DNA from: a virus | Virus record (IMG/VR): IMGVR_UViG_3300037483_000594 | Coordinates: 64,001-128,000 of that record | Length of the DNA: 64,000 nt | Reading direction: 5' to 3' (one strand) | Translations under genes and position numbers: made by a program | Part shown: positions 456 to 56,040 of the stretch, piece after piece | Layout: every line of letters begins with the position of its first letter | Numbering within the stretch: position 1 is the first letter of the stretch | Notes under the pieces: model-generated | Seen by the model: only the letters and a program-made list of their open reading frames with translations | Databases searched by the model: none | Told to the model about the DNA's origin: nothing

Positions 456-3400
456 GTGGGCATCTACGGGCGCGTTCGGTACGGCGAAAGTTTTTACGGC
501 ATCTCCGCTATCCCCACGTCTGTACTATGGGACGTGTTCGACTTTTGCGAACCGACGGAAGCGACACTGCTGACATTGCTCTCCTACAGCAACGTGTCCA
601 CCTCCCGGTACGGGGCACCGGTCTCTTGGTTCTCCGGCAACGACTACTGCATGTACAGTGATGACGGGGTCGGGACGAATGTGCGGATTGACATCGCTGT
701 CCCGTTCCCCACGGCAACTCTTGAGTTCTCGATACTGCCGTCGACACTTCCCGAGGACTTTTCAGATCCCGTTGCGAACAGAGCGTTTTTTGGTGTGTAC
801 GCGAACGGCGCTAACGCAGTGGGTCTGCTCCTCTCCGAAGACGGAGGCATAGCGCTGGCCGTCGATCCAACCACCGTTCTTAGCGTCTTCCCGGACTCGG
901 CGGACATCTTCGCTGAGGGGCTCGACTACTACGTGTTTCGGGTGGTGATCGACGGAGCTATGGCCTCGTTGTACGTCACCCGGAAAGACGTCCTGACGTT
1001 GACTGGGGTACACCAACTTCGGTACACGTTCCCGGCCCCGGAGTGCCCGTCCACGGTGTTGGACGGAGCTTTTATTGAGGTCGTGGGCCAGGCAGCCGAT
1101 CCCACGCTTGTGTGCCTTGACTGTCTCCGCCTCTCGTCTTCGGCACTGTACGGTAACGAACAGCCGGTGGCTGTGATCACCACTCCGGACCAGCGGCAGC
1201 GTACCGGGTCCTACGCTTTTATGGACGGGCGGGAAAGCTACGACCCTGACTCACCCCCGCAGCCCCTCGAGCACATGTGGACGCTCACCGGAGCTCCGAG
1301 CGGAGATGCGTCGCTCCTTCTTGTGGAAGCCGCCGCCCCCGCCGACCCAAGCGGGTATACAAACAGGGCGACGGGGGCAGCAGGGGCTTTCTCGGATGTG
1401 CTCGTCGGAGATCTGCTGGTTGGACCGCTCATCAGCGGGGTGATCGTCTACGTCTCCGCGGACGGGAGCGAGGTGGTGAGCTGCCGCGACGTTTTGCCCG
1501 GGGGTGTTACCGGGCTCGTAACGGTGGTTCGGCAGTACGCCTGGGGTGGAGAGCGCCTTTCCGGTACGCTGTTGAACGTGGTGGCCGCAGGGGTCTCCCC
1601 GCCCCTTGTCCCAGAGGCTGGAGAGCCCTACCTGGTACTGTTTCCGGCGGTGGGAGCATGGGCAGGGCACGAGGGTGAGCTTGCCGTGTACACAGGCGCC
1701 TGGGCCTTCACGACTCCCACGTTAGGCACCGTGGTGTTCGTGCGTGGGGACTACGAGTGCTACCGCTACGCAGGAGCTGGGCTGTGGCGGATAGACGACC
1801 CGCTGCCCTGGGAACTCCCACGGTGGGAGGGGCGCCTACGGCCCACCAGTTCGTTCCTTTTGAGCGTGGCTGGCATCTATGACGTCGACCTCGTGGTCAC
1901 GGACGGGGTGCGCACGAGTGTTCCGGCGAGTGGGATTGTCACAGCCTCGGCGTTGGACACGGTGTTGGGGGTTGTCCCCGACCTCTCGTTCTTGTGGAAG
2001 CACCTCCCCGGGGGCTTTTGGGAGCTGGTGGAGGGGAGAGAGGTGTTCCCCACGTTTTGGAGTGCCTTGACGCAGTTGGCAGCCGGGGAACTGCTCGAAC
2101 TCTGGCAGCACCAGATGTCATTGGACCTTTTCCGGGTTCAGCGCACCTTTCAAAGACACTGGCTCAACTACGATCTCCGCGTGGAGCTCACAAGCTACCG
2201 CGACTTGCCTGCTGCACTGGACACGGGGCTTGATGTGGCTGGGTACTCCACCGCGCCGGATGTTGTACCTCCGCAGGAGTACACCTACGCGCTTGGAGCT
2301 ATCGTCCCTGGGGTAGAGGCCGGGCAGTACCTCGTGCTTGCAGGTGTGCTGTACCGGATTTTACGTGTTGTGGTGACGACCCAGACCTTGGTGGTGACCG
2401 CGCACCCTATGGTCACGGGGGCGGACAGGCCTTCGCATTGGATGATTCGGCCCACGGCCACGTCGGTACTCGACAACTTTTCCGCGCTTGCTGTAGCGGC
2501 CAACGACGTAGCCGTGTTCGAGATCGTTGAAGACGGGGAGACCTCCTTTGTTGAGGCACCGGTCTATGGGGTGCGGGACGGTGTTGTGGCGTTTGGAGGG
2601 AGCTCCATCGCCCCGTACAGTGGGGCCGATGTCTACCTCCGCTATGTTCGGAGAAGGTCCACTGTGGCTGTTGATGCTTCAGTGGTCTCTGTCCCAAAGC
2701 TGCAGGAAGTTATCAACTACGGGGTGGTGAGCGGGGCTGCAGCCCCACTCTACGAAGGGCGGGACTACCACATTGCGGATTCGGTGCTTTCGTTTCTGGA
2801 CGTGTTCTTTCCGGTGGAGCTCCGTGGCTACGACGGCAGTACCCCCGACAGCCACACCTTTGAGGATCTGAACGCCGACTTCACATCCATCGGCTCCGAC
2901 TGCCTCTTGGAGGTCAACGGTGGCCGGTATCGTGTTGCTGTTGTCTTGTCTGCTACACAACTCGAGCTCGAGGACGATTGCCTCCCTGCTGGGTTGTCCG
3001 GAGAGTCGTGGGTTGTCCGGAGTGCCTTGGCTCCTCCGGCGGTTGTCTGGGCTGAGATAACACACCTAAGCAACCACGGGGTGATCTCTAGCAACTTCGG
3101 GCGTCTCATCGGCTTCTCGGAGGACATGTTCAACGAGCGCACAGACGGTCTCGACTACCTGTCGGCTGTTCGTGGGCTGTGGAGCTACGTCTACAACGCC
3201 AGGACGCTTGAGGCCACAAGGTCCGCAGCACAGATAGCTCTCGGGCTCCCGTTCGCGGAAGTGACGGGGGTGGTGGTTGATATCCGAACCTACGGGACGG
3301 CCACTGTCGTGCTCGTGCGCGATGCCGCACCGCCATACACCGTGCGTTCGTACAGGTTCCTCACAAGCCTTGGTGTGGCCACAAACCCGGTGACAGGGGT

Positions 3401-36280: not shown

Positions 36281-39200
36281 ATGGCACGTCTCGACCCAGG
36301 GGAAACTTTTGAAGCGCTGAAGGGGGAGGTCACCAAGGCGATAAAGTCGCAGTTTCCGCAAGTGGGGTCGCAGCACGTTCTTGAGCTGCGCGATGTCGTG
36401 GTGGACGACAACGTCTCGTCGGACGAGGTTTCCACACAGGCCGCAGCGAAGCTAGACGGCAAAACGTTTGGTGTGCCCATAAAAGCGTCTTTGGTCCTCA
36501 GGGACAAGGCGTCCGGAAAGGTGCTCGACGAGCGTGTGCAACGGGTAGGCACCCTTCCGAAGATCACCAGCCGCTACTCTTGGATAGTCCGGGGCACAGA
36601 GTACCAGGTAGACAACCAGTTCAGGCTGCGCCCGGGCGTGTACACGACGGTCCACAAAGACGGAGGGCTCGAGAGCTTCTTGAACTTCGAGGGTATCCCC
36701 CTTCACATAAAGTTTGACCCCAAGTCCAAGAAGTTTGCGGTGAAACACAAGACCGCTTCTCCGCCTCTGTACCCTGTGATGCGTGCACTGGGGTTTTCGG
36801 ATGAACAGTTGCGGGATGCCTGGGGCAAGGAGATCTTGGCGGCGAACCAAGTGGACACCTCCGGGCGCCCTCTGCAGGTGGACAAACGGGCCATGGACTT
36901 CGCCCGAAAGCTCGTCCCTGCCGCAGAGGTGAACACGCTGGCCGAGGCTTCACGAGCCATTAAGACGTACCTCGGTGCCAAGACGTTGCACCCGGACGTG
37001 ACCGAGAAGACGTTGGGAGCTCGGTACGACACCATCACCCCCGACGTCTTTCGAGCCTCAACGGAGCGGCTGCTTGGGATAGCGCGCGGAGAGCAAAAAC
37101 CGGACACCCGTGACGCCCTGCACTTCAAGGAGCTGAACGGTGTCGAGGACCTGTTGTCAGAGCGGCTCGCGAAGAACGCCAAGATGAACGCGCGCCGGAT
37201 AGCCAACAACCTCGACAAGAAGACGGAGATTCGCCAGATCGTTGGGACGGGGCACTTTAACAGCCAGCTACACGGCTTTTTTGCCGACTCAACATTGGCG
37301 TCGCTGGCCCAGCAGACGAACCCCCTCCGCATGATCGATGGGCACACCCGCACCACCATCATGGGAGAGGGTGGGATCAAAAGCGCGAACGCCGTCACCG
37401 ATGAGGCAAAGCTTGTGGACCCCAGTCACTTTGGGGTGCTCGACCCCCTCGTGACTCCCGAGAGCGGGAAGGCCGGGGTCTCGTTGCAGCTCGCCATCGG
37501 CGCCAAGAAGGACGGAAAGACACTCGCCGTTCCCCTCATCAACGTGAAGACCGGGAAGGTCGAGTTCGTCAACACGGCCAAGGTAAACGACGTTGTGGTG
37601 GCCATGCCCGACGCCGTTACCTTCTCGCAAGGAAAGTTGGTGGCCAAGGACGGCGGGTCCACTGTCCGGGCGAGTGTCAAGGACAACGAGTTCCGGGAGG
37701 TCCCTCTCCGGGAAGTGCAGTACGTGGCCCCCAAGGCTACCCAGATGTTCTCCTTGTCGTCGAACTTGGTGCCGTTCCTGGCGTCGAACTCTCCGAACCG
37801 GGCTTCCATGAGCGGGAGGCACCAGGAGCAGGCGATCAGCTTGAAGTACCGGGAGCCCCCCCTGGTGCGCTCGGCCCTTGGGGACAAGAGCTTTGGGGAG
37901 ATCCTGGGGCAGTTCGCCGCGCAGCACTCTCCTGTCTCCGGAGAGGTGGTGGCTGTGGAGCCTGGGCTGATGAAGATCAAAGGCCCTGACGGAGTGAAAG
38001 AGGTACAGCTCTACAACCACTACCCGCTCAACGACAAGAAAGGCCAGTTGCACTCCACCCCCTCCGTGAAGGTAGGGGACAAGGTCAAGGCCGGGCAGCT
38101 CATCGCTGACACGAACTTCAGCGCTGACGGAATCTACGCCCCCGGGAAAAACCTGCAGGTTGCCTACCTACCATGGGGCGGCCAAAGTGTTAGCGGGGAT
38201 ACGTACGTTTATTGGGTTGACTCGCAGGGCGGGCACTTTGGACCAATCGGTAATATGCCGGCGCAGGGGGAAGTGTACGCCAACGTTCTGGATTCAGAAT
38301 CTGTAGAGGGCCGGTTGCATCGTGTTCACAGTTTTATAGGTCATTACACCGCCGAGCCTATGTTTGAAATCAAGATGTTAGAGCCGTTTCGAGTTAAAGC
38401 AACCGCATGTCACAGTTTTATTACAATTGATGAGACAGGGGGCTTTGTAAACATTACACCGGCCAAGATGATACCGCGAAAAACACTCTTGCCTGTTGTA
38501 CAGCCGACGTTGCGCTTCAGTAGTCAAATAGGGCAGATGTTTTGTAAATCAAAAACTGCTGGTGGTATTTCTGTGTCATTTCCTATGGATAAAGACGCGG
38601 GGTACGTTTTTGGTGTTTACACAGCAGAGGGGTGCTCCCTGGGAGGAACTAGGGGGTGTAAAGGACTTAGTATCTCGGTTACTGAGGGGGACCTATTAGA
38701 GCGATTAGAAAGTATTTTAGACAAGTGGGGTGTTAGCCATTCACGACGTTTGCGTGGGGTAAACATACACAATTCCGCAGTCGGCCGCATTGTTACAGAC
38801 GCCTGCGGCTGTCTTGCGCAATTTAAAAAGATACCCGACTTGCTGTGGTCTCAACATCCAGATTTTATTGATGGATTTTTGGACGGGTACTGGAGTGGCG
38901 ACGGTACTTGTTCTGATAAGCAGTTTACTGCGTCGACTGTATCTCGAGAACTGGCGGAGGGGTTGATATTTTTACTTGCGGCACGAGGAGTTAAGGCGCG
39001 GTACAGAACGTACAAGATCCCAGGACATCAAGACCAAAACCTGATAAATGTTTACAGAGAAACACTTGATAAATTTCCAGCACTGAGTTCTGGTCGAAAA
39101 GAACTTCTTCGACAGGAGTTAATAGCCAAGGGTACTGAGCACGGGCGGGATCGAATTCCTATCCCCGAGGCGTATCGCGACGAAGTAAAAAAAGCGCTGC

Positions 39201-42200
39201 GGAGCGTAGGAAGAGCGCTGGGGGGCAGCCCTTACGCTGCACGTCGTGTTTTGAAGCAAGTGCGAGAGCTACTGCCAGAAACGGTACGTCGGTTTGTTGA
39301 TGCTCCGATTTGGTGGGAAGTAGTTGACACGGTCAAGGAAGTGGAGCCGGAGGAGTACGTTTACGATTTGGATATGCGGCCGTTCGGCAATTTTATTGTG
39401 GGGCCCGGTCTTGTTGTACACAACACGTACGAAGACGGGGTGGTGATAAGCGAAGACGCAGCCCAAAAGTTGACGTCCACCCACCTGTACAAGAGCAAGC
39501 TCTCGACGCGTGACGCGCGCGTCGAGCCTGCCAAGCGGTACAAGAGCATCTTTGGGGCTACGATCCCGGCGGAGCGCATGGCAGGCTTGGGGGAAGACGG
39601 GGTAGTGCGGGAAGGGACGATGGTCAAGCCCGGAGATGTTCTCGTGGCGGGCTCTGCAGACCGCGTGTTCACTACCGAAGAGCAGAAGCTGCGTGCGATC
39701 CAGAAGTCCCTCGTGCCCACGAAGCGAAACGCTGCGGTGACGTGGGACGCCGAACACCCAGGGAAGGTCGTGGCCGTGCACCGCGGAAAGAGCGGGGTGG
39801 AGGTGCATGTCGAAACCGAGGAGCCTGCGCAGGTGGGTGACAAGATCAGCTCACACCACGCCGCCAAGGGCATCATCTCCGCGGTCTTGCCGTCTGCGGA
39901 GATGCCCCAGCGCCCGGACGGGAGCCCGATCGACATCGTCATGAACCCGGTTGGCACCGCCGGGCGTCTTAACGTTGGGCAGATCCTGGAAACCGCCGCG
40001 GCCAAGGTCGCGGAGAAGACCGGCAAGCCGTTCATCATCAAAAACTTCGAGACCGAGGATAACCACGGTCTCGTCGCAAAAGCACTGAAGGAGCACGGGC
40101 TCTCCGACACCGAGAACCTGATTGACCCCACCACGGGGAACACCATTCCGGGCATCCTTACGGGGCCGCAGTACATCATCAAGCTGGAGCACCAGGTCGA
40201 CAAGAAGATGAGCTCGAGGGACCGCGGTGCCTACGACCGAAACCTTATTCCGAAGGGCGGCGGGCACGACGGAGGGCAGGCCTTCGGAGCTCTGGGGACC
40301 TACGCACTCCTGAGCCACGGGGCGCGCGGAAAGATCCAGGAGGCGCAGACGCTGCTCTCGGACAAGGGGCAGGGTGGGCTGAACGACGAGTTGTGGGGTG
40401 CTATCCAGTCGGGGGAGCTTATCCCGCCTCCGAAAGCCACGTTTGCCACCAAGAAGTTCGAGGGCTACCTTCGCGGGCTCGGGGTCAACGTCGAGCAGGA
40501 CGGTAACCGGCTCTCGTTGATGCCTGTCACTGACGCGCAGACCCTGGCGCTCTCGAGCGGTGAGCTGCAAGACGCCGGGCGTACCGTGATCGTCAAGAAC
40601 AACCAGCTTGTTCCGGAGAAGGGCGGGCTCTTCGACAAGCGGGCCACTGGCGGGCTGGACGGTCAGAAGTGGGGGCATATCACCCTGGCGAAGCCCATGC
40701 CCAACCCGCTGTTCGAGTCCGGGATAAGGAGCCTCACGGGACTCAAGACCACCGAGTACCAGCAGCTCATCTCCGGAGAGCTTGGGGTAAGCCAGAGCGG
40801 GGCACTGGTCCCCGCGGACACGCGCGGGGCCGAGACAGGGCCCTCGGCTGTGGTGAAGCTCCTCGACAAAGTGGACGTGAAACGCGCACTGCAAGAGGAA
40901 GAAGGCCGCATCGGCGGTCTTCGTGGCCAAAAGCAGAATGAGGTTCGGAAGAAGATAAAGTACCTCAGGGCGCTGGACCGTCTGAAGCTTTCTCCAGCGG
41001 ATGCCTATACCACAAGGCACGTGCCTATTCTGCCGCCATCAATGCGCCCTGTGGCGCTTACCGAAGACGGGAAGCTGCAAAACGACGACCTGAACTACCT
41101 TTACCGCGATCTCGCGGTGCTCAATGACCAGGTGAAGAAGATCCCCGCGGACATGCCCAAGTCTTTGGTGCAAGACAAAGAGGCCTACCTGTACGACAGT
41201 CTCCGCGCCCTCACCGGGCTTGGGGGTACGGTCAACGACAAGTACCCCGGGCTCCTTCACCGGATAGCTGGAAAGACCTCTCCCAAACAGGGGTTCTTCC
41301 AGAACGTGCTGATGAAGCGTAAGCAGGACCTCTCGGGGCGCTCGACTATCATCCCGGACCCCACCTTGTCCTTGGACGAGGTAGGGCTTCCCATCGACAT
41401 GGCGCGCGTCATCTACAAGCCCTTTGTGGTTCGGGAGATGAAAAACTCGCTTGGGCTCAGCCCCCTGGCCGCAAAGAAGCTGATCGACGAGGACGACCCG
41501 CTTGCCCGGAAGGCGCTCGAGCGCGTTGTTTCCGAACGCCCTATCATGCTCAAGCGGGACCCCGCCCTGCACAAACACAGCGTGCAGGGGTTCAAGCCCA
41601 AACTGATTAAAGGGAGCGCCATCAAAATCCCACCGCTGGTCACCAGTGGCTTCAACGCCGATTTTGACGGTGACCAGTGCATCGGTGCTGTTGTTTTGTT
41701 CCTTGAAAGAGATGTATTCAATTATGATATATGCTATTGGACACCAAGGAGGATTACTTTGACAGCGCGGATGCGAGAGCAGATTGGTTATTGTGATGCG
41801 GACGGAGAGTTTGTTGTCTGTGACCTATCGGAAGTGCCCCACGCGGAGGAGTGTGTAACGAAGGGGCACATTGACTATCATCCTGTGTCGGGGGTTAGCG
41901 TGCTCACTCTTGACCCGACGAAGGGGGCATGTTTCGCGGAGGTGACGGGGTGGTCTTATCATCGGCAACGCTCGGTGGAGATAGTCACTCTTGCTAGCGG
42001 GCGGCAGATCGTTACAGACGATGACCCAAGGGCTGTGTTTGGCGTGGATGCTTCGTCGTTGGAGTGGTGTCGGCGTCGTCCGCGTGAGAGTGCAGACCAG
42101 TTTGTGCCTGTTTTGGACGAAGTTCCTGCGTCCTTTACCGAGTTGACAGCGCTCGCGCTACCAAGAGACAAGTCCGGGCGGATGAAGCCAGAGGTGCTTC

Positions 42201-45200
42201 TTGACGCTAAGTTTGGTTACTTTCTGGGTTGTTTGGTGGGGGACGGCTGGGTCACGGGTGATGAGACACTGCGGTTCACATGTATGGCCAGCAGCTTTCC
42301 GGAGGTGCTTGGTACGTGGGAGCGGTCTGCGTCATGCCTTTTCTCAGAGAATCCGCACTTCAGCGAGCAGTACTGCTGTGAGGGGACCTTCGAGAACTCA
42401 AAGGGGACTACGCGCGCAACTATTTCTTCGGTAGCGTTGGCTACGTTTCTGCAGCCACTTATCGGTCATGGCGCGCGCAATAAGCACCTCCCTCCGTTTT
42501 TCTTGTCGGCCCCTGAATCTTTCCGTGTTGGTCTTTTGGCTGGGTTGATGGACACAGACGGCTCGATGTCATGGTCGATGGCAAAAGGCAAGGCGCAGTT
42601 TATGTGCAGTGTTAGCTCCACCAGCATAAGGCTGCTACAGGAAACTCAGCATCTTCTCCGCACGCTTGGAATCACCGCGAGTATCACCACTACCACCACG
42701 CCAAAGGGAGCTGCGTCATGGGTGCTGTCTATCTCTTCTGTGGGGTTGTACGAGCACAGGCGTAAACTTGCTCGACCGGCGCACAGTGGGAAACGCGCTG
42801 TGTGGGAGGAGTTCTGTGCTGGGGACGGCCCGGCTTCCGGAGGTGCTTTTTCACGGTACCGGCTCGTACCGCTACCTTCCAAGCTTGCTGCCAGCCTGCG
42901 GAAGATTGTCACGGTGAACGAGGACCGCAGCGTGTACATGACGCTGTCCAAGGCGATCGATCGGCAGTACATGTCGAAGCTGCTGGCCGAAAAGACTGTT
43001 CGGATGGTGAACGAACGTGGAGGGTGTGCACACCCCTTCTACGCGCGCTGGGCACGGCTGGTCGAAACTCCTGGGATGCACTTTGAGCGTGTTGTGGACG
43101 TGCAGCAGACGAACATTCTAGAGGACGGGTATGACCTAACCGTCCCGGGCTACGAGACCTTTATGGCAGTAGACGGCGTTGTGCTGTCCAACACAATGTC
43201 GGCTTACGTGCCGGTGACCGAAAAGGCTGTTCAGGAAGCGTGGCAGATGATGCCGTCGAACAACCTGTTCAGCCCGGCTTCCGGGAAGCTGATGTACGCA
43301 CCCACCAACGAGATGCAGGTAGGGCTGTACATGGCCACCGAGGTCGGGAAGGACACGGACAAGAAGTTTGCTTCCCTCTCGGAGCTGCGACGGGCAGTGA
43401 ACTCCGGAAAGCTCCACGGGACCGATGTGGTCACGTTGAACGGGCAGCGCACCACCTTCCACCGCGCGGAACTCGTAGACGCACTTCCGGAGCAGGCGCG
43501 GGAGGGGAACAAGCACCTCCTCACGGACCTTGGGTACAGGCTGACCAAGGCCAAGCAAGGCGCGCTGTTCGAGTCGATGGCGCACTCTGGGGCCGACGGC
43601 AAAGAGTTCGGGGCGGCGATAAACGCCGTCAAGGACCTTGGGAACAAGGTGGTGAGCACAGGGGGCTTCTCGTTCGGGCTCAAAGACATCGCTCCTCAGA
43701 AGGCGCTGCGGGCCGCAGCCTTTGCCGATGCGGACAAGGCTGTCGCACAACTGCGTGGTGTCGAACGTGAGGAGAAGATCGTCGACCTCTACTCCAAGGC
43801 GACCACCGCGCTCGAGAAGGACGTGCAGCAGATGGCGCAAGAACGCGCGTCTGAGTCTGCACTGGCCAAGCTGCAGGTAGCTGCCGGGATCAAGGGGAAC
43901 GGTTACAGGCAGCTCGTGGCGGCCCCCGGGCTCTTCGTGGACGGGCTAGGGAGGGTAGTGCCCTCTCCGGTCAAGCGCTCTTACGCGGAGGGGCTGAAGA
44001 GCAGCGACTACTACGTCAGCACCTCTGGGGCGCGGAAGGGCATAATCCAGAAGGTACAGAGCGTGCGCGACCCAGGGTACCTCACCAAGCTCATGGTGAA
44101 CTCCACCATTTCCGAGATGGTGGACAGGGAGGACTGCGGCACCCATTACGGTATCTCCCTGTCCGTGGACGAACCGGATGTGCAAGGGCGCTTCACGGTG
44201 GTTGACCACAAGCTCAGCAACGGCTCGGTCATCCCCGCCGGCACCTTGCTCGACAGCTCTATTGTGACCCGGATACGCAACGACAAGCCCGGGGCCAAAC
44301 TGGTGGTGCGTTCTCCCATGCGATGCACTCACACCACTGGGCTCTGCGCAAAGTGCGCCGGGCTGCAGGCGGACGGGAAGCTTCCGGAAAAGGGCACCAA
44401 CATTGGTATCTTGGCTGCCCAGGCCCTTGGAGAACGTGGAACACAGCTAGCTCTGAAGTCCTTTCACTGTTCGCACGCCAAGACGTTGGTGGTCGTCTGC
44501 AGGCGGGATGACCAAACAGTCAGGGCTATGACACTCGAGGAACTCTACGAGAAGGCGGTCAACCCTGTGGCGGAGGGTTGGCTGATCTACGACGGGGCGT
44601 GGCAGGAGCTCTCCGCGGTGAGCAGGCACCGCCCAACCGACCGTATGATGTTTGTGAGCTGCTCCAGTGTGGCGACGGTCTGCCAGGACAATCATCCCCT
44701 GGCGACCTACGAAAACAGGGTTTCTTGCGAGAAGTGTGGTTACCACCGGCTGAAGAAACCAGGGGCGAACGCTTCCATAAAAAACGGCAAGTTGTACTGC
44801 CCAAAGTGCTTTACCTACCAATACCCTATGGTCCCGGCGGAGGGGGAGGTGAAGTTCCTTGCACCTCAAGAGGTGGAGTGCAAGCGTGTGTACTTGCAGC
44901 GCTGTCTCGACCTCCCGGTTTCTTGTGTTAGAAAAACACCGTGGCTTGATCCGTACCTCGCTGGTATGTACGTGGCAGAGGGGAGTCTGGGGTATGTAGC
45001 AACTGCCTCGGGGGTGAAGAAACCGTACTTCGTCACTATCAGTCAGAACCGCGGGGCCGTGCGCGACAAACTGGAGCAGAAGCTGCCCCCTGAGTGGTGT
45101 GCCAAGCTTGGGGGGCGTGGCGTTGTGATTAACAGAGTCGCGCTCGGTGAGCGACTTGAAACAACGTTCGGCCGCTACTCGCGAAACGTGGCGCTGCCCT

Positions 45201-46387
45201 CCGACTTCCTAGCCTACGAACAGGGGTGGCTCGCCGAGTTCTTGTGTGGGCTGATCGATGGGGACGGGACGATCAAGCCTGACAAGGACGGGGCGCAGCG
45301 TATCGCGATCGACACGACAAGTTTTGCGCTGGCGCAACAGGTCGTGTTTATCTGTTCTCTGTTGAACATCGTGCCTTCTGTCCTGGCTACGTCACACCGA
45401 AAGCTGACCAGACATCAGGGTTTCCGTGTTGTGCTGCGGGTGACAGCGGCAGTGAAAGACTTGTTGAAAGAATCCATAAAGGTCCAGAGTGTGGAGAAAC
45501 TGAGCCCGGACCAGGACTTTCAGAGAACAGGGCGCACGCTGCTCTCGACCAAAAAAGAGGTGTTGTACACAGACGAGTACGTCTACGACGTCACGACCTC
45601 TTCCGGTACGTTTCTCGCGGGTGGGGTGCTCAGTCACAACAGCGGGGGTGTTTACTCCCCTACGGACATGACCTCTTTGGCTGGGAGCGGGATCGAGAGA
45701 GCCATGACGCTCCTTCAGCTTCCGAAGACGGTGAAGGGCTCGGCCACCCTTTCCACGGTCGGGGGTGTGGTGCGAAAGGTCGAGAGGGACGCTGCCGGCG
45801 GGGTCAACATTTTTGTGGACGACGGAAAGGGCCTGCGAAAGCACTACGTGCCCGCGGGTCGCAAGCTCCTGGGCTCGGTTGGAGGGAAGGTGCGCCCCGG
45901 AGACCCCCTTTCTTCAGGGCCGGTGAACCCGCACGACCTGTTGCCGCTTGCCGGGGTAGCACGCACCCAGGGGTTCCTGGCAAACGAGCTGCACAGCATC
46001 TACGGGAAAGAGGGCGTCAGGCGTCGGCACTCCGAGGTTCTGGTGAGGGCTGTGAGCTCGGTGGCGAGGGTAGAGGACCCCGGAGATCACGCGACTCTTC
46101 TTCCGGGGGACTACGTGGACACGAACGCCACGGCGCAGTGGAACGACAAGCACAGGGGCAAGGCGCCTGTGCAGTACACTCCCGTGGTGCGTGGAGTCGA
46201 GCAGCTTCCGCTTGACGTGAGCGAGGACTGGTTGGCCCGCCTGAACCATGAGCGCGGAAGAAAGACCATTATCGAGGCTGCGCAACAAAACTGGTCCACG
46301 GACCTGCACGGTCGGCACCCTATTCCCGGACTTATCTATGGTGTAGAATTCGGAAAAGGAACGAAAGACAAACCCTGGCACTACTAG
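36281..46387 (+). CDS. rpoBC: fused beta-beta' (two-barrel) DNA-directed RNA polymerase with three inteins
   Basis: TPES, GDK...H..KG, KL.H.V..K..R (beta); KxQDLSGRS, RDPALH, NADFDGD, GARKG, GYLTK, AAQALGERGTQL (beta'). Confidence 0.95.
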   Translation: MARLDPGETFEALKGEVTKAIKSQFPQVGSQHVLELRDVVVDDNVSSDEVSTQAAAKLDGKTFGVPIKASLVLRDKASGKVLDERVQRVGTLPKITSRYSWIVRGTEYQVDNQFRLRPGVYTTVHKDGGLESFLNFEGIPLHIKFDPKSKKFAVKHKTASPPLYPVMRALGFSDEQLRDAWGKEILAANQVDTSGRPLQVDKRAMDFARKLVPAAEVNTLAEASRAIKTYLGAKTLHPDVTEKTLGARYDTITPDVFRASTERLLGIARGEQKPDTRDALHFKELNGVEDLLSERLAKNAKMNARRIANNLDKKTEIRQIVGTGHFNSQLHGFFADSTLASLAQQTNPLRMIDGHTRTTIMGEGGIKSANAVTDEAKLVDPSHFGVLDPLVTPESGKAGVSLQLAIGAKKDGKTLAVPLINVKTGKVEFVNTAKVNDVVVAMPDAVTFSQGKLVAKDGGSTVRASVKDNEFREVPLREVQYVAPKATQMFSLSSNLVPFLASNSPNRASMSGRHQEQAISLKYREPPLVRSALGDKSFGEILGQFAAQHSPVSGEVVAVEPGLMKIKGPDGVKEVQLYNHYPLNDKKGQLHSTPSVKVGDKVKAGQLIADTNFSADGIYAPGKNLQVAYLPWGGQSVSGDTYVYWVDSQGGHFGPIGNMPAQGEVYANVLDSESVEGRLHRVHSFIGHYTAEPMFEIKMLEPFRVKATACHSFITIDETGGFVNITPAKMIPRKTLLPVVQPTLRFSSQIGQMFCKSKTAGGISVSFPMDKDAGYVFGVYTAEGCSLGGTRGCKGLSISVTEGDLLERLESILDKWGVSHSRRLRGVNIHNSAVGRIVTDACGCLAQFKKIPDLLWSQHPDFIDGFLDGYWSGDGTCSDKQFTASTVSRELAEGLIFLLAARGVKARYRTYKIPGHQDQNLINVYRETLDKFPALSSGRKELLRQELIAKGTEHGRDRIPIPEAYRDEVKKALRSVGRALGGSPYAARRVLKQVRELLPETVRRFVDAPIWWEVVDTVKEVEPEEYVYDLDMRPFGNFIVGPGLVVHNTYEDGVVISEDAAQKLTSTHLYKSKLSTRDARVEPAKRYKSIFGATIPAERMAGLGEDGVVREGTMVKPGDVLVAGSADRVFTTEEQKLRAIQKSLVPTKRNAAVTWDAEHPGKVVAVHRGKSGVEVHVETEEPAQVGDKISSHHAAKGIISAVLPSAEMPQRPDGSPIDIVMNPVGTAGRLNVGQILETAAAKVAEKTGKPFIIKNFETEDNHGLVAKALKEHGLSDTENLIDPTTGNTIPGILTGPQYIIKLEHQVDKKMSSRDRGAYDRNLIPKGGGHDGGQAFGALGTYALLSHGARGKIQEAQTLLSDKGQGGLNDELWGAIQSGELIPPPKATFATKKFEGYLRGLGVNVEQDGNRLSLMPVTDAQTLALSSGELQDAGRTVIVKNNQLVPEKGGLFDKRATGGLDGQKWGHITLAKPMPNPLFESGIRSLTGLKTTEYQQLISGELGVSQSGALVPADTRGAETGPSAVVKLLDKVDVKRALQEEEGRIGGLRGQKQNEVRKKIKYLRALDRLKLSPADAYTTRHVPILPPSMRPVALTEDGKLQNDDLNYLYRDLAVLNDQVKKIPADMPKSLVQDKEAYLYDSLRALTGLGGTVNDKYPGLLHRIAGKTSPKQGFFQNVLMKRKQDLSGRSTIIPDPTLSLDEVGLPIDMARVIYKPFVVREMKNSLGLSPLAAKKLIDEDDPLARKALERVVSERPIMLKRDPALHKHSVQGFKPKLIKGSAIKIPPLVTSGFNADFDGDQCIGAVVLFLERDVFNYDICYWTPRRITLTARMREQIGYCDADGEFVVCDLSEVPHAEECVTKGHIDYHPVSGVSVLTLDPTKGACFAEVTGWSYHRQRSVEIVTLASGRQIVTDDDPRAVFGVDASSLEWCRRRPRESADQFVPVLDEVPASFTELTALALPRDKSGRMKPEVLLDAKFGYFLGCLVGDGWVTGDETLRFTCMASSFPEVLGTWERSASCLFSENPHFSEQYCCEGTFENSKGTTRATISSVALATFLQPLIGHGARNKHLPPFFLSAPESFRVGLLAGLMDTDGSMSWSMAKGKAQFMCSVSSTSIRLLQETQHLLRTLGITASITTTTTPKGAASWVLSISSVGLYEHRRKLARPAHSGKRAVWEEFCAGDGPASGGAFSRYRLVPLPSKLAASLRKIVTVNEDRSVYMTLSKAIDRQYMSKLLAEKTVRMVNERGGCAHPFYARWARLVETPGMHFERVVDVQQTNILEDGYDLTVPGYETFMAVDGVVLSNTMSAYVPVTEKAVQEAWQMMPSNNLFSPASGKLMYAPTNEMQVGLYMATEVGKDTDKKFASLSELRRAVNSGKLHGTDVVTLNGQRTTFHRAELVDALPEQAREGNKHLLTDLGYRLTKAKQGALFESMAHSGADGKEFGAAINAVKDLGNKVVSTGGFSFGLKDIAPQKALRAAAFADADKAVAQLRGVEREEKIVDLYSKATTALEKDVQQMAQERASESALAKLQVAAGIKGNGYRQLVAAPGLFVDGLGRVVPSPVKRSYAEGLKSSDYYVSTSGARKGIIQKVQSVRDPGYLTKLMVNSTISEMVDREDCGTHYGISLSVDEPDVQGRFTVVDHKLSNGSVIPAGTLLDSSIVTRIRNDKPGAKLVVRSPMRCTHTTGLCAKCAGLQADGKLPEKGTNIGILAAQALGERGTQLALKSFHCSHAKTLVVVCRRDDQTVRAMTLEELYEKAVNPVAEGWLIYDGAWQELSAVSRHRPTDRMMFVSCSSVATVCQDNHPLATYENRVSCEKCGYHRLKKPGANASIKNGKLYCPKCFTYQYPMVPAEGEVKFLAPQEVECKRVYLQRCLDLPVSCVRKTPWLDPYLAGMYVAEGSLGYVATASGVKKPYFVTISQNRGAVRDKLEQKLPPEWCAKLGGRGVVINRVALGERLETTFGRYSRNVALPSDFLAYEQGWLAEFLCGLIDGDGTIKPDKDGAQRIAIDTTSFALAQQVVFICSLLNIVPSVLATSHRKLTRHQGFRVVLRVTAAVKDLLKESIKVQSVEKLSPDQDFQRTGRTLLSTKKEVLYTDEYVYDVTTSSGTFLAGGVLSHNSGGVYSPTDMTSLAGSGIERAMTLLQLPKTVKGSATLSTVGGVVRKVERDAAGGVNIFVDDGKGLRKHYVPAGRKLLGSVGGKVRPGDPLSSGPVNPHDLLPLAGVARTQGFLANELHSIYGKEGVRRRHSEVLVRAVSSVARVEDPGDHATLLPGDYVDTNATAQWNDKHRGKAPVQYTPVVRGVEQLPLDVSEDWLARLNHERGRKTIIEAAQQNWSTDLHGRHPIPGLIYGVEFGKGTKDKPWHY
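38186..39424 (+). mobile_element. intein 1 (LAGLIDADG, 413 aa) in the beta part
   Basis: PWGGQ|SVSG...VVHN|TYEDG; AT-richer than the flanks. Confidence 0.9.
41678..43192 (+). mobile_element. intein 2 (LAGLIDADG, about 505 aa) next to NADFDGD
   Basis: DGDQ|CIGA...VLSN|TMSAY; LAGLMDTDG. Confidence 0.85.
44468..45640 (+). mobile_element. intein 3 (LAGLIDADG + Zn ribbon, 391 aa) in the trigger loop
   Basis: KSFH|CSHA...LSHN|SGG; LCGLIDGDG. Confidence 0.9.
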
Positions 46388-51760: not shown

Positions 51761-51975
51761 TGCCATTCGTCTCGGAGAGTCAGCGCCGAAAGTTCTACGC
51801 CATGAAAGAGCGCGGAGAGGTCAGCGCAAAGGTCGTCAAGGAGTTCGAGAAGGGCTCCCCGGAGGACCTCCCGGAACGTGTGAAGACCGCTGCCTACTGC
51901 GAAGCCTACGGGCTCGAGCTGCTCAAGGGGGCAGCCCCCCGCTGGAAACAGCTTCTCCGTGGCAAGGAGATCTGA
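51757..51975 (+). CDS. small K-x-A protein
   Basis: MPF.S..QRR N-terminus; VKTAA. Confidence 0.65.
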   Translation: MMPFVSESQRRKFYAMKERGEVSAKVVKEFEKGSPEDLPERVKTAAYCEAYGLELLKGAAPRWKQLLRGKEI

Positions 51976-52499
51976 TGCGCGCGCTTCTGGTGCAGGGGGG
52001 AGCACTCGCTGACACGCTCCTGAAGCTTGCGGAGAAGCCTCTCCGTGAGCGCGTAGAGGTGTACGCTCTCAAAGACGGAAAGGTCCTGGCCGGCATCTAT
52101 CCGGACGGGTCAGTGGGTGTGCCTGGGGGAGGGGTGTCCTCCGGGGAGTCCCCCGAGCACGCGGCAAAGCGGGAGTACAAGGAAGAGGCAGGCCTGACCG
52201 TCAAGAACCTGCAGCCCCTTCCCGTGCCCCCACTTGTTGAAAAGTGGGAGAAGCGGAAGGACCTCACCGACAAGGAGAAGGAGCGGCGCAAGGAGTTCTC
52301 CGGGTCGCGCACTCACTTCTACATAGCCGACCTTTCCGGAAAAGGCGGGAAGGCGGTGGACCCCTCCGCGTTGAAGAGGCTCGTTCCGCGTTCGGTAGCG
52401 GCTCTTGTCGACAAGCTGCAAGAGCAAGCCGACTCCGGGAAGAAGCGGGACAAGGTACGCCTCAAGGTACTCGAGACTGTCCAGGAGTTAACCAGCTAA
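51975..52499 (+). CDS. Nudix hydrolase with K-x-A leader
   Basis: GGGVSSGESPEHAAKREYKEEAG Nudix box. Confidence 0.9.
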   Translation: MRALLVQGGALADTLLKLAEKPLRERVEVYALKDGKVLAGIYPDGSVGVPGGGVSSGESPEHAAKREYKEEAGLTVKNLQPLPVPPLVEKWEKRKDLTDKEKERRKEFSGSRTHFYIADLSGKGGKAVDPSALKRLVPRSVAALVDKLQEQADSGKKRDKVRLKVLETVQELTS

Positions 52500-52904: not shown

Positions 52905-53222
52905 CTAGTACTTGGACAGAACCTGCCCCACGGTCCAGCGGGGGTCGTGGGACACGGCGACTACGTACCCCTGGCACTTGGGGTCGTAGATCGCCGTTGC
53001 GCCGAACCGGTGCACCAAGAAGTGCACCAGTACGGCGCAGACAGGGAGGCTCATGGGCCCGCTTATGCGGACCAAGCCCCCGCCGATCTCGAGACCCTTC
53101 AAGGTCTCGTTCTCGAGCTCCGCCACGATCTGGGCGTTCGTGGCGGTCTCCCCGAAACCCACCGTCAGGTCGGTTACCTGATCGGTGGAGTGCGGCTCCC
53201 GCCGCACATGGAAAAGTGACAT
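52905..53222 (-). CDS. csx3: Csx3/Crn3-like cyclic oligoadenylate ring nuclease
   Basis: 105 aa after AGGAGGTG; V.ISG...L......H..H.......YDPK..GYVVAVSH.P...VG.V resembles the Csx3 pattern. Confidence 0.75.
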   Translation of the reverse strand: MSLFHVRREPHSTDQVTDLTVGFGETATNAQIVAELENETLKGLEIGGGLVRISGPMSLPVCAVLVHFLVHRFGATAIYDPKCQGYVVAVSHDPRWTVGQVLSKY

Positions 53223-53233
53223 TGTCACCTCCT

Positions 53234-53289
53234 TGGCGCAGGTGAGGGGGAGTCGAACCCCCTGACGCCGAAGCGTCTCCAACACCTGC
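53234..53289 (-). ncRNA. 56-nt mini tRNA-like RNA (no D stem, UUCG hairpin in place of the anticodon arm, G-CCA end)
   Basis: GCAGGTG/CACCTGC; GACGC-ttcg-GCGTC; AGGGGG-TTCGACT-CCCCCT; GCCA. Confidence 0.7.
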
Positions 53290-53486
53290 CCCAGGGTCAC
53301 GCCTTACCTGGATGGCGCTTCACTTTTTGTTTCCATCCAGAGTGTGAAGTCTCTGGACCGGGCTACTGCTCCACCAAAGAGAGGGCCGGGACAAAGGGCG
53401 CCGCTTCGCGCCGATTCGGACACCTCCTGCGGACCATGCGCTGCCCGTACCACGCAGAAGGCTGCGAGGGTTTCTTTGTACTCAGA

Positions 53487-53606
53487 TCAGCGCTTCCGCG
53501 CTGAGCGGAAGAACCCATAGGGGTCCTTCCCGGTTACGCCCTCGATCACGATGGCGAGAAGAACGCACACAGCCACAAGGGCGATGATGAGGAACAATGT
53601 TGTCAC
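53487..53606 (-). CDS. 39-aa membrane micropeptide (not in ORF track)
   Basis: GGAGGTG RBS; MTTLFLIIALVAVCVLLAIVIEGVTGKDPYGFFRSARKR. Confidence 0.6.
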   Translation of the reverse strand: MTTLFLIIALVAVCVLLAIVIEGVTGKDPYGFFRSARKR

Positions 53607-54243: not shown

Positions 54244-56040
54244 ATGGACGACCTTTACAAGCGCGCGCAGGACAGTGTCAGCACCGGGTTGTCGGACGAA
54301 GAGACCGAGGCCTTGCTGGACGCGGAGATGGAAGAGGAGGAGCAGGACAGGTACGACGCTCTTCTGGAGGGGGAGGTGGCGGTGGGGAAGGCCCCGGTGG
54401 TACCGGTGTCGCTGAGCAAGTACACCGAGTTCAGTGTGCGGATAAACACCGGGTACGACATCGAACCTTTCTCGTTCAAAGGCAGGGAGCACTTCCGGAA
54501 GGTGTACGACACACCTGACAAGGACGTCCTAGTGCTAGCCAGTCGGCAGTCGGAGAAGTCGACGTTCCTGGGGAACAAGATCTTGGCGTTGTCGGCTATC
54601 ATCCCCGGGTTTCAGACGCTGTACGTTTCTTCTTCGGCAACGCAGTCCAAGGTCTTCTCGGAAGACCGGATACGCGAGCCTATCCTGAACTCTCCGCGAC
54701 TCCAGCAGAGTGTTGACCCGCGTGCCCAGAGTGTTTTTTCCAAGAGGTTTCGTAACAGCTCCATGATCAGGTTGCGCTACGCCTACCTGACAGCGGACCG
54801 AGCTCGTGGTGTGAAGTCAGACGGGATCTTTATCGACGAGATTCAGCACATCTTGCCGTCCAACATCCCTATTATCGAGCAGTGTGCGTTCCACTCGATT
54901 CACAAGTACCGCACGTACTCCGGGACCCCGTTGACCCTCGACAACACCATCGCTGTCCTGTGGGACTCCCACTCCACGCAGAACGAGTGGATCGTCCCCT
55001 GCCGGGCCTGTGGCCAGGAGAAGAAGCGGGACACCTGGTGGTGGAACGTCCTGGGTCCCGGGAACATCGGCAAGGAAGGACTGGTGTGCGAGCACTGTCA
55101 CCGTCCCATCAACGTGCGCGACCCCGATGCTCAGTGGGCGTCGATGCAGCCGGTGAACGCGGACAACGCTCTGCGGGTCAACTTCCGCGGTTTCCGGATT
55201 ACGCAGTTCATGGTCCCGTCGCTGAACTGGCGGAAAGACATCCTGGAGAAGAGGGAGGAGTACTCCACAGCGCAGTTCAACAACGAGGTGTGTGGGCTGA
55301 GCTACGACTCCGGGAGCCGGCCTATTTCCAAGCAGCAGCTTATCCGCGCCTCACGTGCGGACGTGGACATGTCCGAGATCGAGAAGAACGTGGCCCGGTG
55401 CACCGGAGGGGTGTTCGCTGGGGTCGACTGGGGCCAGGACACGGAGAACTCCTTTACCGTGCTCACCCTGGGCGGGTACATGACCCACGGCTTCCAGATC
55501 TTTTTTGCCCACCGGTTCGTGGGGGCCGACTGTGACCCCGATGTCCAGCGCGAGAAGGTTGCCAAGCTGCTGGGCGCCGTCCACTTCCGGGTGTGCGGAG
55601 CGGACTACGGCGGCGGCTTCGGGCGTAACGACTGGCTGATGCGCAAGTTCGGAATGAAAAAGTTTGTGCGGTTTCAGTACGCCCCCAACCCCGTGCGGAA
55701 GATCGTGTGGAACCCCAAGCTCCTGCGGTTTGTGCTCCACCGCTCGGAGGTGATGGGCGACTTTTTTAGCGCCTTAAAGGAGCATAGGATCAGCCTTCCG
55801 AACTGGAAACAGTTTTCCGAACCACACGGCCGGGACATCCGCAACATCTTCACTGAGTTCAACACCCAGCGCCTTCTCATGCAGTACAAGCACACCCATG
55901 GCAAAACCGACGACACCTTCCACTCCATCATCTACTGCGTCCTGGGGAGCATGCTCGTGAAACCCCGCCCTGACATCCTGATCCCCCTCAAGGAAGGGAA
56001 CGTCAGCTTTGACCGTGGCGGCCTAGACCTCGCTGCCTAG
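54244..56040 (+). CDS. terminase large subunit (GpA-like)
   Basis: SRQSEKST Walker A, FIDE Walker B, SGTP, CxxC..CxxC, GVDWG nuclease Asp, DD..H. Confidence 0.88.
   Translation: MDDLYKRAQDSVSTGLSDEETEALLDAEMEEEEQDRYDALLEGEVAVGKAPVVPVSLSKYTEFSVRINTGYDIEPFSFKGREHFRKVYDTPDKDVLVLASRQSEKSTFLGNKILALSAIIPGFQTLYVSSSATQSKVFSEDRIREPILNSPRLQQSVDPRAQSVFSKRFRNSSMIRLRYAYLTADRARGVKSDGIFIDEIQHILPSNIPIIEQCAFHSIHKYRTYSGTPLTLDNTIAVLWDSHSTQNEWIVPCRACGQEKKRDTWWWNVLGPGNIGKEGLVCEHCHRPINVRDPDAQWASMQPVNADNALRVNFRGFRITQFMVPSLNWRKDILEKREEYSTAQFNNEVCGLSYDSGSRPISKQQLIRASRADVDMSEIEKNVARCTGGVFAGVDWGQDTENSFTVLTLGGYMTHGFQIFFAHRFVGADCDPDVQREKVAKLLGAVHFRVCGADYGGGFGRNDWLMRKFGMKKFVRFQYAPNPVRKIVWNPKLLRFVLHRSEVMGDFFSALKEHRISLPNWKQFSEPHGRDIRNIFTEFNTQRLLMQYKHTHGKTDDTFHSIIYCVLGSMLVKPRPDILIPLKEGNVSFDRGGLDLAA

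Follow-up and report, generated by a model that had tools for sequence, protein, structure and literature searches.

A tRNA-derived top-half element borders a candidate csx3 anti-CRISPR gene in a large sediment phage

Introduction

What is a tRNA-like fold that lacks decoding arms doing directly in front of the ribosome binding site of a phage gene? The question is raised by a 56-nt element, here called the mini-tRNA, on the minus strand (53289-53234) of a 170-kb sediment phage. The stretch of DNA that was analysed, hereafter the window, comprises 64,000 nucleotides (positions 64,001 to 128,000 of the IMG/VR record IMGVR_UViG_3300037483_000594), and all coordinates given for this phage refer to it. 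A first-pass annotation, made from the letters of the DNA, had described a minimal tRNA mimic located just before csx3 and had listed several roles for it, among them an RNase P/Z punctuation signal, a decoy and a primer. Here, we address whether the element is real, from which kind of tRNA it derives, how it is placed with respect to csx3, and which of the proposed roles its features and its surroundings favour.

The mini-tRNA is a real and strand-specific fold

Read 5′ to 3′, the whole mini-tRNA is GCAGGUG-UUGGA-GACGC/UUCG/GCGUC-A-GGGGG/UUCGACU/CCCCC-U-CACCUGC-G-CCA. Its parts, delimited from the sequence and the predicted fold, are the following:

53283..53289, minus strand: 5′ strand of the acceptor stem, GCAGGUG, perfectly paired with 53238-53244
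53278..53282, minus strand: unpaired linker UUGGA in the place of U8 and the D arm, with GG within it
53264..53277, minus strand: 5-bp hairpin GACGC-UUCG-GCGUC, read as a class-II variable arm from the Rfam tRNA-Sec alignment
53245..53263, minus strand: T arm A-GGGGG / UUCGACU / CCCCC-U, with a 6-bp stem and a canonical loop
53238..53244, minus strand: 3′ strand of the acceptor stem, CACCUGC
53237 and 53236-53234, minus strand: discriminator G73 and genomically encoded CCA, respectively, from the sequence

The acceptor stem consists of seven Watson-Crick pairs, and its pair 3:70 is A3:U70, not G3:U70. An extra U located 3′ of the T stem pairs with A48, which gives a T stem of 6 bp and a coaxial arm of 13 bp. 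Both the D arm and the anticodon arm are absent and, because these arms have been lost, the mini-tRNA cannot decode. RNAfold produced exactly the three-helix fold (-30.2 kcal/mol, 62% of the ensemble, z -3.41), and this fold was kept in contexts of 176 nt and 846 nt, in the minimum-energy as well as in the centroid structures. All the parts that had been noted from the sequence (acceptor, T loop and stem, linker GG, UUCG hairpin and G-CCA) are present on the minus strand, and RNAfold agrees with them.

A strict descriptor, requiring a perfect 7-bp acceptor, a 5-bp T stem, a TTCRANN loop and a linker of at most 30 nt, matched once in the complete virus record of 170,135 bp, whereas 60 Markov-simulated genomes gave no match. 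When a model was built from the mini-tRNA, it scored 87.6 bits on the minus strand versus 13.6 on the plus strand. The mini-tRNA is a real, strand-specific feature and not a product of chance.

The same data bear on the possibility that the locus matters as DNA, either as attP or another recombination site that arose from a tRNA gene fragment or as a palindrome formed by chance. tRNA gene fragments are common at integration sites, where they often arise (PMC9897764). The mini-tRNA has its two acceptor halves, paired with each other, whereas duplicates of the att type are one-sided, and the whole phage genome contains no integrase, resolvase, tyrosine recombinase or serine recombinase; therefore, the element is not an att-type tRNA gene fragment. 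The strand specificity of the T-loop motif and the empty simulated genomes also speak against a DNA site and against chance, respectively. Both explanations are largely refuted, and we give them hardly any credence.

The element is a tRNA top half with a class-II-type variable arm

ARAGORN found a single tRNA (Val-TAC) and zero tmRNAs in the whole genome. It made no call at the mini-tRNA, where the general tRNA model of Rfam (RF00005; gathering score 29 bits) gave no match even at E up to 10. A canonical tRNA was rejected on these two results together with the missing D and anticodon arms. The best Rfam match of the mini-tRNA was tRNA-Sec (RF01852), which reached 28.5 bits against a gathering score of 47. 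The 13-bp helix, the variable arm and G73 are present as in tRNA-Sec, but there is neither a D stem (6 bp in this class) nor an arm to bear the UCA anticodon, and tRNA-Sec was rejected as well. The tRNA-like domain of tmRNA resembles the mini-tRNA in its acceptor stem, its T arm and its D-loop analogue that lacks a stem. However, the mini-tRNA has A3:U70 in the place of G3:U70, the pair of alanine identity, is only 56 nt long and contains neither pseudoknots nor a tag reading frame, and the tmRNA mode of ARAGORN returned nothing. The earlier description of the element as tRNA-like and yet not tmRNA was therefore correct, and the top half is a genuine one.

The first-pass annotation had taken the UUCG tetraloop to stand in the place of an anticodon. 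The tRNA-Sec model of Rfam places the UUCG hairpin at the position of the variable arm. In BLAST searches of GenBank phages, the hairpin and the T arm matched the variable arm and T arm of a tRNA-Leu of Stenotrophomonas phage Marzo, in which a 14-nt segment, AGACGCUUCGGCGU, is identical and covers the end of the anticodon stem and the variable arm; because E = 2, this match is suggestive only. The T arm and the 3′ end of the mini-tRNA matched a tRNA-Ser of cyanophage S-CREM1 (E = 0.01). On the basis of the tRNA-Sec alignment and of the matches to phage tRNA-Leu and tRNA-Ser, the hairpin appears better read as a retained class-II (Leu/Ser-type) variable arm than as the stub of an anticodon arm, and we have replaced the former assignment accordingly.

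The mini-tRNA is a tRNA-derived top half, made of an acceptor stem, a T arm, a class-II-type variable arm and G73-CCA. It shares the long variable arm beside the T stem with the class-II tRNAs (Leu, Ser and Sec), G73 with tRNA-Ser and tRNA-Sec, and the 13-bp helix with tRNA-Sec. In contrast to all of them it has neither D nor anticodon arm, and it carries C2:G71 versus the G2:C71 of bacterial tRNA-Ser and G73 versus the A73 of tRNA-Leu. Phage tRNAs with the same acceptor stem were mostly Gly (U73) or Leu (A73). When the 20-nt core was compared with the D regions of phage tRNA-Leu, it performed no better than shuffled cores, 85% of which scored as high. Judged by the acceptor or by the core, no single parent isotype appears to be assignable to the mini-tRNA.

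Identity elements argue against charging

SerRS does not read the anticodon, and serine identity depends mainly on G73 and a long variable arm (PMC9976931). Both determinants exist in the mini-tRNA, whose hairpin arm measures 14 nt, and they would be compatible with a chargeable or factor-binding mini-tRNA to which SerRS adds serine or EF-Tu or RelA binds, or which serves as a primer. The rules established for E. coli also include antideterminants, namely C2:G71 for SerRS and G73 for LeuRS and TyrRS (PMC9976931). The serine check failed on the acceptor, which has C2:G71 where G2:C71, next to G1:C72, is required; the D arm is also missing, as is the tertiary core by which the variable arm is oriented. 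The leucine check failed on the discriminator, which is G73 and not A73. In addition, the arm has 13 bp versus the 12 bp of elongator tRNAs, and no partner machinery is evident, because a CCA-adding enzyme, RtcB and a Ro/TROVE protein are absent from the whole phage genome. By the E. coli identity rules, the mini-tRNA would probably be left uncharged by SerRS or LeuRS. It looks identity-null, a combination that weakens all readings that depend on charging, and we consider a chargeable or factor-binding mini-tRNA very improbable. An aminoacyl-tRNA synthetase decoy acting through charging, which had been among the roles proposed at first, is weakened for the same reason, since C2:G71 together with G73 is identity-null under these rules (PMC9976931).

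Two non-decoding tRNA-shaped folds bracket csx3

The TerL gene of this large phage occupies positions 54244-56040 of the window. The minus-strand features around the mini-tRNA are, in their 5′ to 3′ order:

54146-53733, minus strand: ORF of 137 aa without assigned function
53714-53694, minus strand: hairpin directly 5′ of tRNA-Val
53690-53619, minus strand: tRNA-Val(TAC), called by ARAGORN and scored at 64.2 bits by Rfam; the sole canonical tRNA of the phage
53606-53487, minus strand: ORF of a hydrophobic membrane peptide of 39 aa (from its translation), between tRNA-Val and the spacer
between the 39-aa ORF and the mini-tRNA, minus strand: spacer of ~200 nt
53289-53234, minus strand: mini-tRNA
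53233-53226, minus strand: Shine-Dalgarno sequence of csx3, AGGAGGUG, directly after the CCA of the mini-tRNA
52905..53222, minus strand: csx3, 105 aa, Pfam PF09620 (Cas_csx3), 31.1 bits versus a cut-off of 21
52902-52878, minus strand: GC-rich hairpin just 3′ of the csx3 stop codon, from the fold
52874-52806, minus strand: second non-decoding tRNA-like cloverleaf, from sequence and fold
52803-52781, minus strand: hairpin and U run resembling an intrinsic terminator, at the end of the unit

The product of csx3 is a candidate Crn3-type ring nuclease and a candidate type III anti-CRISPR; among 5.8 billion proteins, no close homologue of it was found. The mini-tRNA ends 11 nt 5′ of the csx3 ATG (53222-53220), and the claim that its CCA runs into the ribosome binding site of csx3 proved exact. 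A similar junction occurs at tRNA-Val, the 3′ end of which (A73-CU) adjoins the GGAGGUG Shine-Dalgarno sequence of the following ORF, and a tRNA-type 3′ end is thus found next to a ribosome binding site twice in the csx3 unit. tRNA-Val carries no encoded CCA (A-CUG); therefore, encoding CCA is not a genome-wide habit.

On the other side of csx3, the second cloverleaf has an acceptor stem GCCGAGA/UCUCGGC, a normal D arm and Watson-Crick pairing at 21/21 stem positions, together with a 5-nt anticodon loop (GUUGA), the T loop UGCAAGC, U73 and no CCA, and it was called by neither ARAGORN nor Rfam. Thus, two non-decoding tRNA-shaped folds bracket csx3. On the minus strand, no terminator was predicted from tRNA-Val to the start of csx3, the first clear one after csx3 being that at 52803-52781; csx3 itself contains one weak site of terminator type (53039-53023). 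From this layout we infer that tRNA-Val, the 39-aa ORF, the spacer, the mini-tRNA, csx3 and the cloverleaf would be transcribed as one minus-strand unit ending at the terminator.

Several other features were recorded at the locus. In relatives from contigs of sediment runs, variants within the 39-aa peptide ORF fall on third codon positions. The spacer contains a possible 51-aa ORF (53363-53518, minus strand; ATG at 53518, preceded by GGAAGGA) that has no Pfam match, and all three variants found 3′ of the peptide ORF in the X3/X4 relatives (53468, 53477 and 53486) correspond to third codon positions of this frame. Immediately 5′ of the mini-tRNA, at 53290-53362 on the minus strand, the hairpins CCAGAG...CUCUGG and CUGGAUGG...CCAUCCAG are mutually exclusive and have CUGG in common, and the pair could constitute a structural switch. 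Another predicted hairpin, GGUGAC-AAU-GUCACU (53208-53233, minus strand), includes the start codon of csx3 as well as the 3′ portion of its Shine-Dalgarno sequence, and it may modulate translation. A NUDIX hydrolase gene on the plus strand (51975-52499; Pfam E = 9.6e-11) converges on the csx3 unit, and an ORF of 3368 aa lies at 36281-46387 on the plus strand. In the corresponding module of TerL relatives, an upstream gene codes for a fused multisubunit RNA polymerase, a protein of ~2060 aa in which both an Rpb2 and an Rpb1 domain occur.

Natural variation and analogues in other phage DNA

Contigs of four runs were compared. A second sediment run, X2, contained an identical copy of the mini-tRNA, and the contigs of two more distant runs, X3 and X4, gave no coverage of the element. 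Among the runs listed for this DNA, none is an RNA run. Exact and degenerate pattern scans of IMG/VR revealed no relatives, BLAST of the 5-kb neighbourhood against GenBank phages gave no match, and single-protein searches of viral contigs with TerL and Csx3 as queries produced no relative. Through protein look-up and alignment, 85 loci with TerL relatives (42-60% identity) were gathered. These loci had no syntenic element and almost no tRNAs, and the covariance model R1 gave only noise-level matches on them, apart from locus L199 (16.1 bits), so that nothing convincing resulted. A relaxed descriptor was dropped, as it gave eight matches on reversed sequence versus nine on real sequence. Homologues with compensatory changes, which had been set as the test of the element and would mark a conserved family, were found neither by the pattern scans nor by R1 on the 85 loci nor in the run contigs. 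It had also been claimed that the perfect stems reflect selection: perfect they are, while selection is at best suggested by them, given that no compensatory homologue was found.

One TerL relative deserves separate description. L199 (45% identity) carries, at 3010-3225 on the plus strand, a 52-nt mini element and two cloverleaves with aberrant anticodon loops, packed between ORFs at ~1.8 kb upstream of terL, and an ATG follows 4 nt after the last fold. In the L199 mini element, the acceptor stem and the T stem both have 6 bp and a side hairpin is present; because its junction topology differs from that of the csx3 mini-tRNA, it cannot be called a homologue. One of the L199 cloverleaves and a cloverleaf of L213 (7637-7704, plus strand) have the same core in their anticodon loops, GUAAUGA, with UAA and UGA inside it, and the folds of these two loci may belong to a set of non-decoding tRNA mimics found across the clade.

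Scans in which the acceptor sequence was fixed yielded plausible mini elements in L002 (the same as L012), L014, L015 and L020. The matches in L009, L010, L011, L013, L017, L021 and L022 appear to be due to chance or to coding sequence, and those in L016 and L018 are real tRNA-Met genes. The mini elements of L002, L014 and L015 are located immediately 3′ of stop codons, between co-oriented genes, and that of L020 in a non-coding stretch ~120 nt downstream of a tRNA-Met. L002 also has a 6-bp T stem, in which a G-C pair replaces the A-U pair of the csx3 mini-tRNA. Among the mini elements with an extra nucleotide the sixth T-stem pair closes in 3/6, which is not above chance. In L014, an unrelated phage contig, the element (2346-2408, minus strand) is 63 nt long, has an encoded U-CCA and is placed precisely between a T4-type terminase large subunit gene, at its stop codon, and the next ORF, of 502 aa. 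CCA is absent from most of the analogous mini elements. The same scan on ~186,000 prokaryote genomes gave one match, probably by chance. The mini architecture does recur in phage DNA, although homologues with compensatory changes were not found.

How far do these data fit an inert remnant, that is, a class-II tRNA gene (Leu/Ser type) of a small phage tRNA cluster from which the D and anticodon arms were recently deleted internally, without any selected role? The mini-tRNA lies ~330 nt from the only tRNA gene of the phage and beside another defective cloverleaf, its hairpin and T arm are similar to what class-II tRNAs have in their 3′ parts, no conservation was seen beyond the identical copy, and most TerL relatives have no tRNA at all at that place. 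However, the extra U of the sixth T-stem pair is not accounted for by a simple deletion, and a remnant leaves unexplained the encoded CCA, which is absent at tRNA-Val, the exact junction with a strong Shine-Dalgarno sequence, and the combination of stems with only Watson-Crick pairs and altered decoding loops in both defective folds. Moreover, the related phage L199 also retains a mini element and aberrant cloverleaves. On balance, we regard an inert remnant as somewhat unlikely.

Discussion

The role best supported by our analysis is that of a tRNA-derived, RNase P-type punctuation and mRNA-end module, and we put it forward tentatively. To serve bacterial RNase P as a substrate, a minihelix needs acceptor and T stems in one coaxial helix, a T loop of canonical type and RCCA at its 3′ end. 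The mini-tRNA has kept all three, in a structure that is real, persists in longer contexts and is not explained by chance. Both folds around csx3 combine perfect stems with altered decoding loops. The junction between a fold and the next cistron recurs at tRNA-Val, at the mini-tRNA and at the last L199 fold, and mini elements with the same acceptor stand 3′ of stop codons in L014, L015 and L002. CCA is encoded at the mini-tRNA and not at tRNA-Val, an occurrence expected 1 in 64 times by chance. The first-pass suggestion of an RNase P/Z punctuation signal is in this way favoured by the context (the second fold after csx3, the tRNA-Val/Shine-Dalgarno junction and the analogues at ORF borders), while the processing itself is predicted rather than observed.

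According to this model, host RNase P would recognise the acceptor/T-arm helix and the RCCA and cut 5′ of G53289. It would cut likewise at tRNA-Val and at the cloverleaf 3′ of csx3, and these cuts would free csx3 as a discrete message, the 3′ end of which would be protected by the hairpin at 52902-52878; expression of csx3 might benefit as a result. Two outcomes can be envisaged at the 3′ side of the mini-tRNA. In several bacteria, CCA acts as an anti-determinant of RNase Z, and the encoded CCA may block this enzyme, in which case the fold would remain as a structured 5′ cap and the Shine-Dalgarno sequence next to it would be free. Since CCA has this effect and tRNA-Val lacks it, the mini fold may stay attached to the csx3 message. 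Alternatively, an additional 3′ cut would free the 56-nt RNA. Some observations count against RNase P-type punctuation. The base 5′ of the cut site is G, not U; in the predicted fold, UGG of the leader can pair with CCA, which could lower the efficiency of RNase P; the arm, with 13 bp, exceeds the canonical 12 by one pair; and there is no compensatory homologue, the sole other copy (run X2) being identical. Also, RNase P would cut any tRNA remnant present in a transcript, whether selected or not.

The mini-tRNA has the position of a tRNA-like processing signal, being a non-decoding fold at a cistron border, with a second fold after the csx3 stop codon. Its closest counterparts in this respect are the t-elements of plant mitochondria, which act as tRNA-like processing signals (PMC1920247), and the mascRNA/MEN-beta ends of MALAT1 (RF01684), which are likewise non-decoding tRNA-like folds within longer transcripts at gene borders. 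In those systems tRNA-processing enzymes make RNA ends at the fold, whereas cleavage at the csx3 mini-tRNA is only predicted. The RF01684 model, of 56 nt, is similar in size to the mini-tRNA, and it matched the csx3 mini-tRNA at 15.2 bits and the L199 mini element at 16.8; both values are far under the gathering score of 42.5, and that of the csx3 mini-tRNA is at noise level. Homology with these organellar or eukaryotic elements is not expected and, unlike them, the mini-tRNA combines a T loop that is canonical throughout with a class-II variable arm and an encoded CCA, and its setting is a phage operon. The minihelix substrates of RNase P, RNase Z and CCA-adding enzymes also lack D and anticodon arms and are made of acceptor and T arms in one coaxial helix, with a T loop at one end and 3′ RCCA at the other; these substrates are synthetic and have 12 bp, whereas the mini-tRNA is natural, has 13 bp and bears in addition a side hairpin and a 5-nt linker.

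If the 56-nt RNA were released, it could also act in trans, as a stable top-half mimic that sponges host enzymes reading the acceptor/T arm, the long variable arm and the CCA end, and that is co-expressed with Csx3 as a second counter-defence. Its targets could be MenT/AbiEii-type nucleotidyltransferase toxins, Cas12a3-type nucleases of the CCA tail or other toxins of the acceptor end. MenT3 requires the long variable arm and the 3′-CCA as well as the top half (PMC11162799), and Cas12a3 contacts the acceptor stem, the T arm and the CCA tail and cleaves truncated tRNAs (PMC12851939); all the parts required by the former and contacted by the latter are kept in the mini-tRNA. G73 with C2:G71 would exclude the RNA from the charging cycle (PMC9976931), the candidate anti-CRISPR gene csx3 adjoins, and phage tRNA loci are described as known counter-defence loci (PMC13096335). 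Nevertheless, the case is circumstantial, with the release and abundance of the RNA, and the host defences that it would meet, hypothetical; a single-copy gene in an mRNA leader is poorly suited to out-compete the whole tRNA pool, and the analogous mini elements mostly lack the CCA. We therefore hold a decoy to be unlikely. Distinctly less probable still is a two-part anti-immunity cassette, in which an identity-null, CCA-ended top half from the csx3 leader would soak up or misdirect immune enzymes that attack tRNA 3′ ends while Csx3 acts beside it, the cloverleaf 3′ of csx3 being a third part.

All in all, the mini-tRNA is best filed with the tRNA-like processing elements and the truncated phage tRNA mimics, within a candidate counter-defence operon and with a putative role. 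Since tRNA finders of the ARAGORN type and Rfam miss such elements, phage annotations under-report them. A decoy, if true, would be a new kind of RNA anti-defence against immunity that attacks tRNA 3′ ends. tRNA folds are known as punctuation from organelles and from MALAT1 and, to our knowledge, are barely documented in this role in phages. If RNase P-type punctuation is true, large environmental phages would rely on reduced tRNA folds as short signals by which accessory genes are separated from operon transcripts, the accessory gene being in this case that of a candidate type III anti-CRISPR ring nuclease, csx3.
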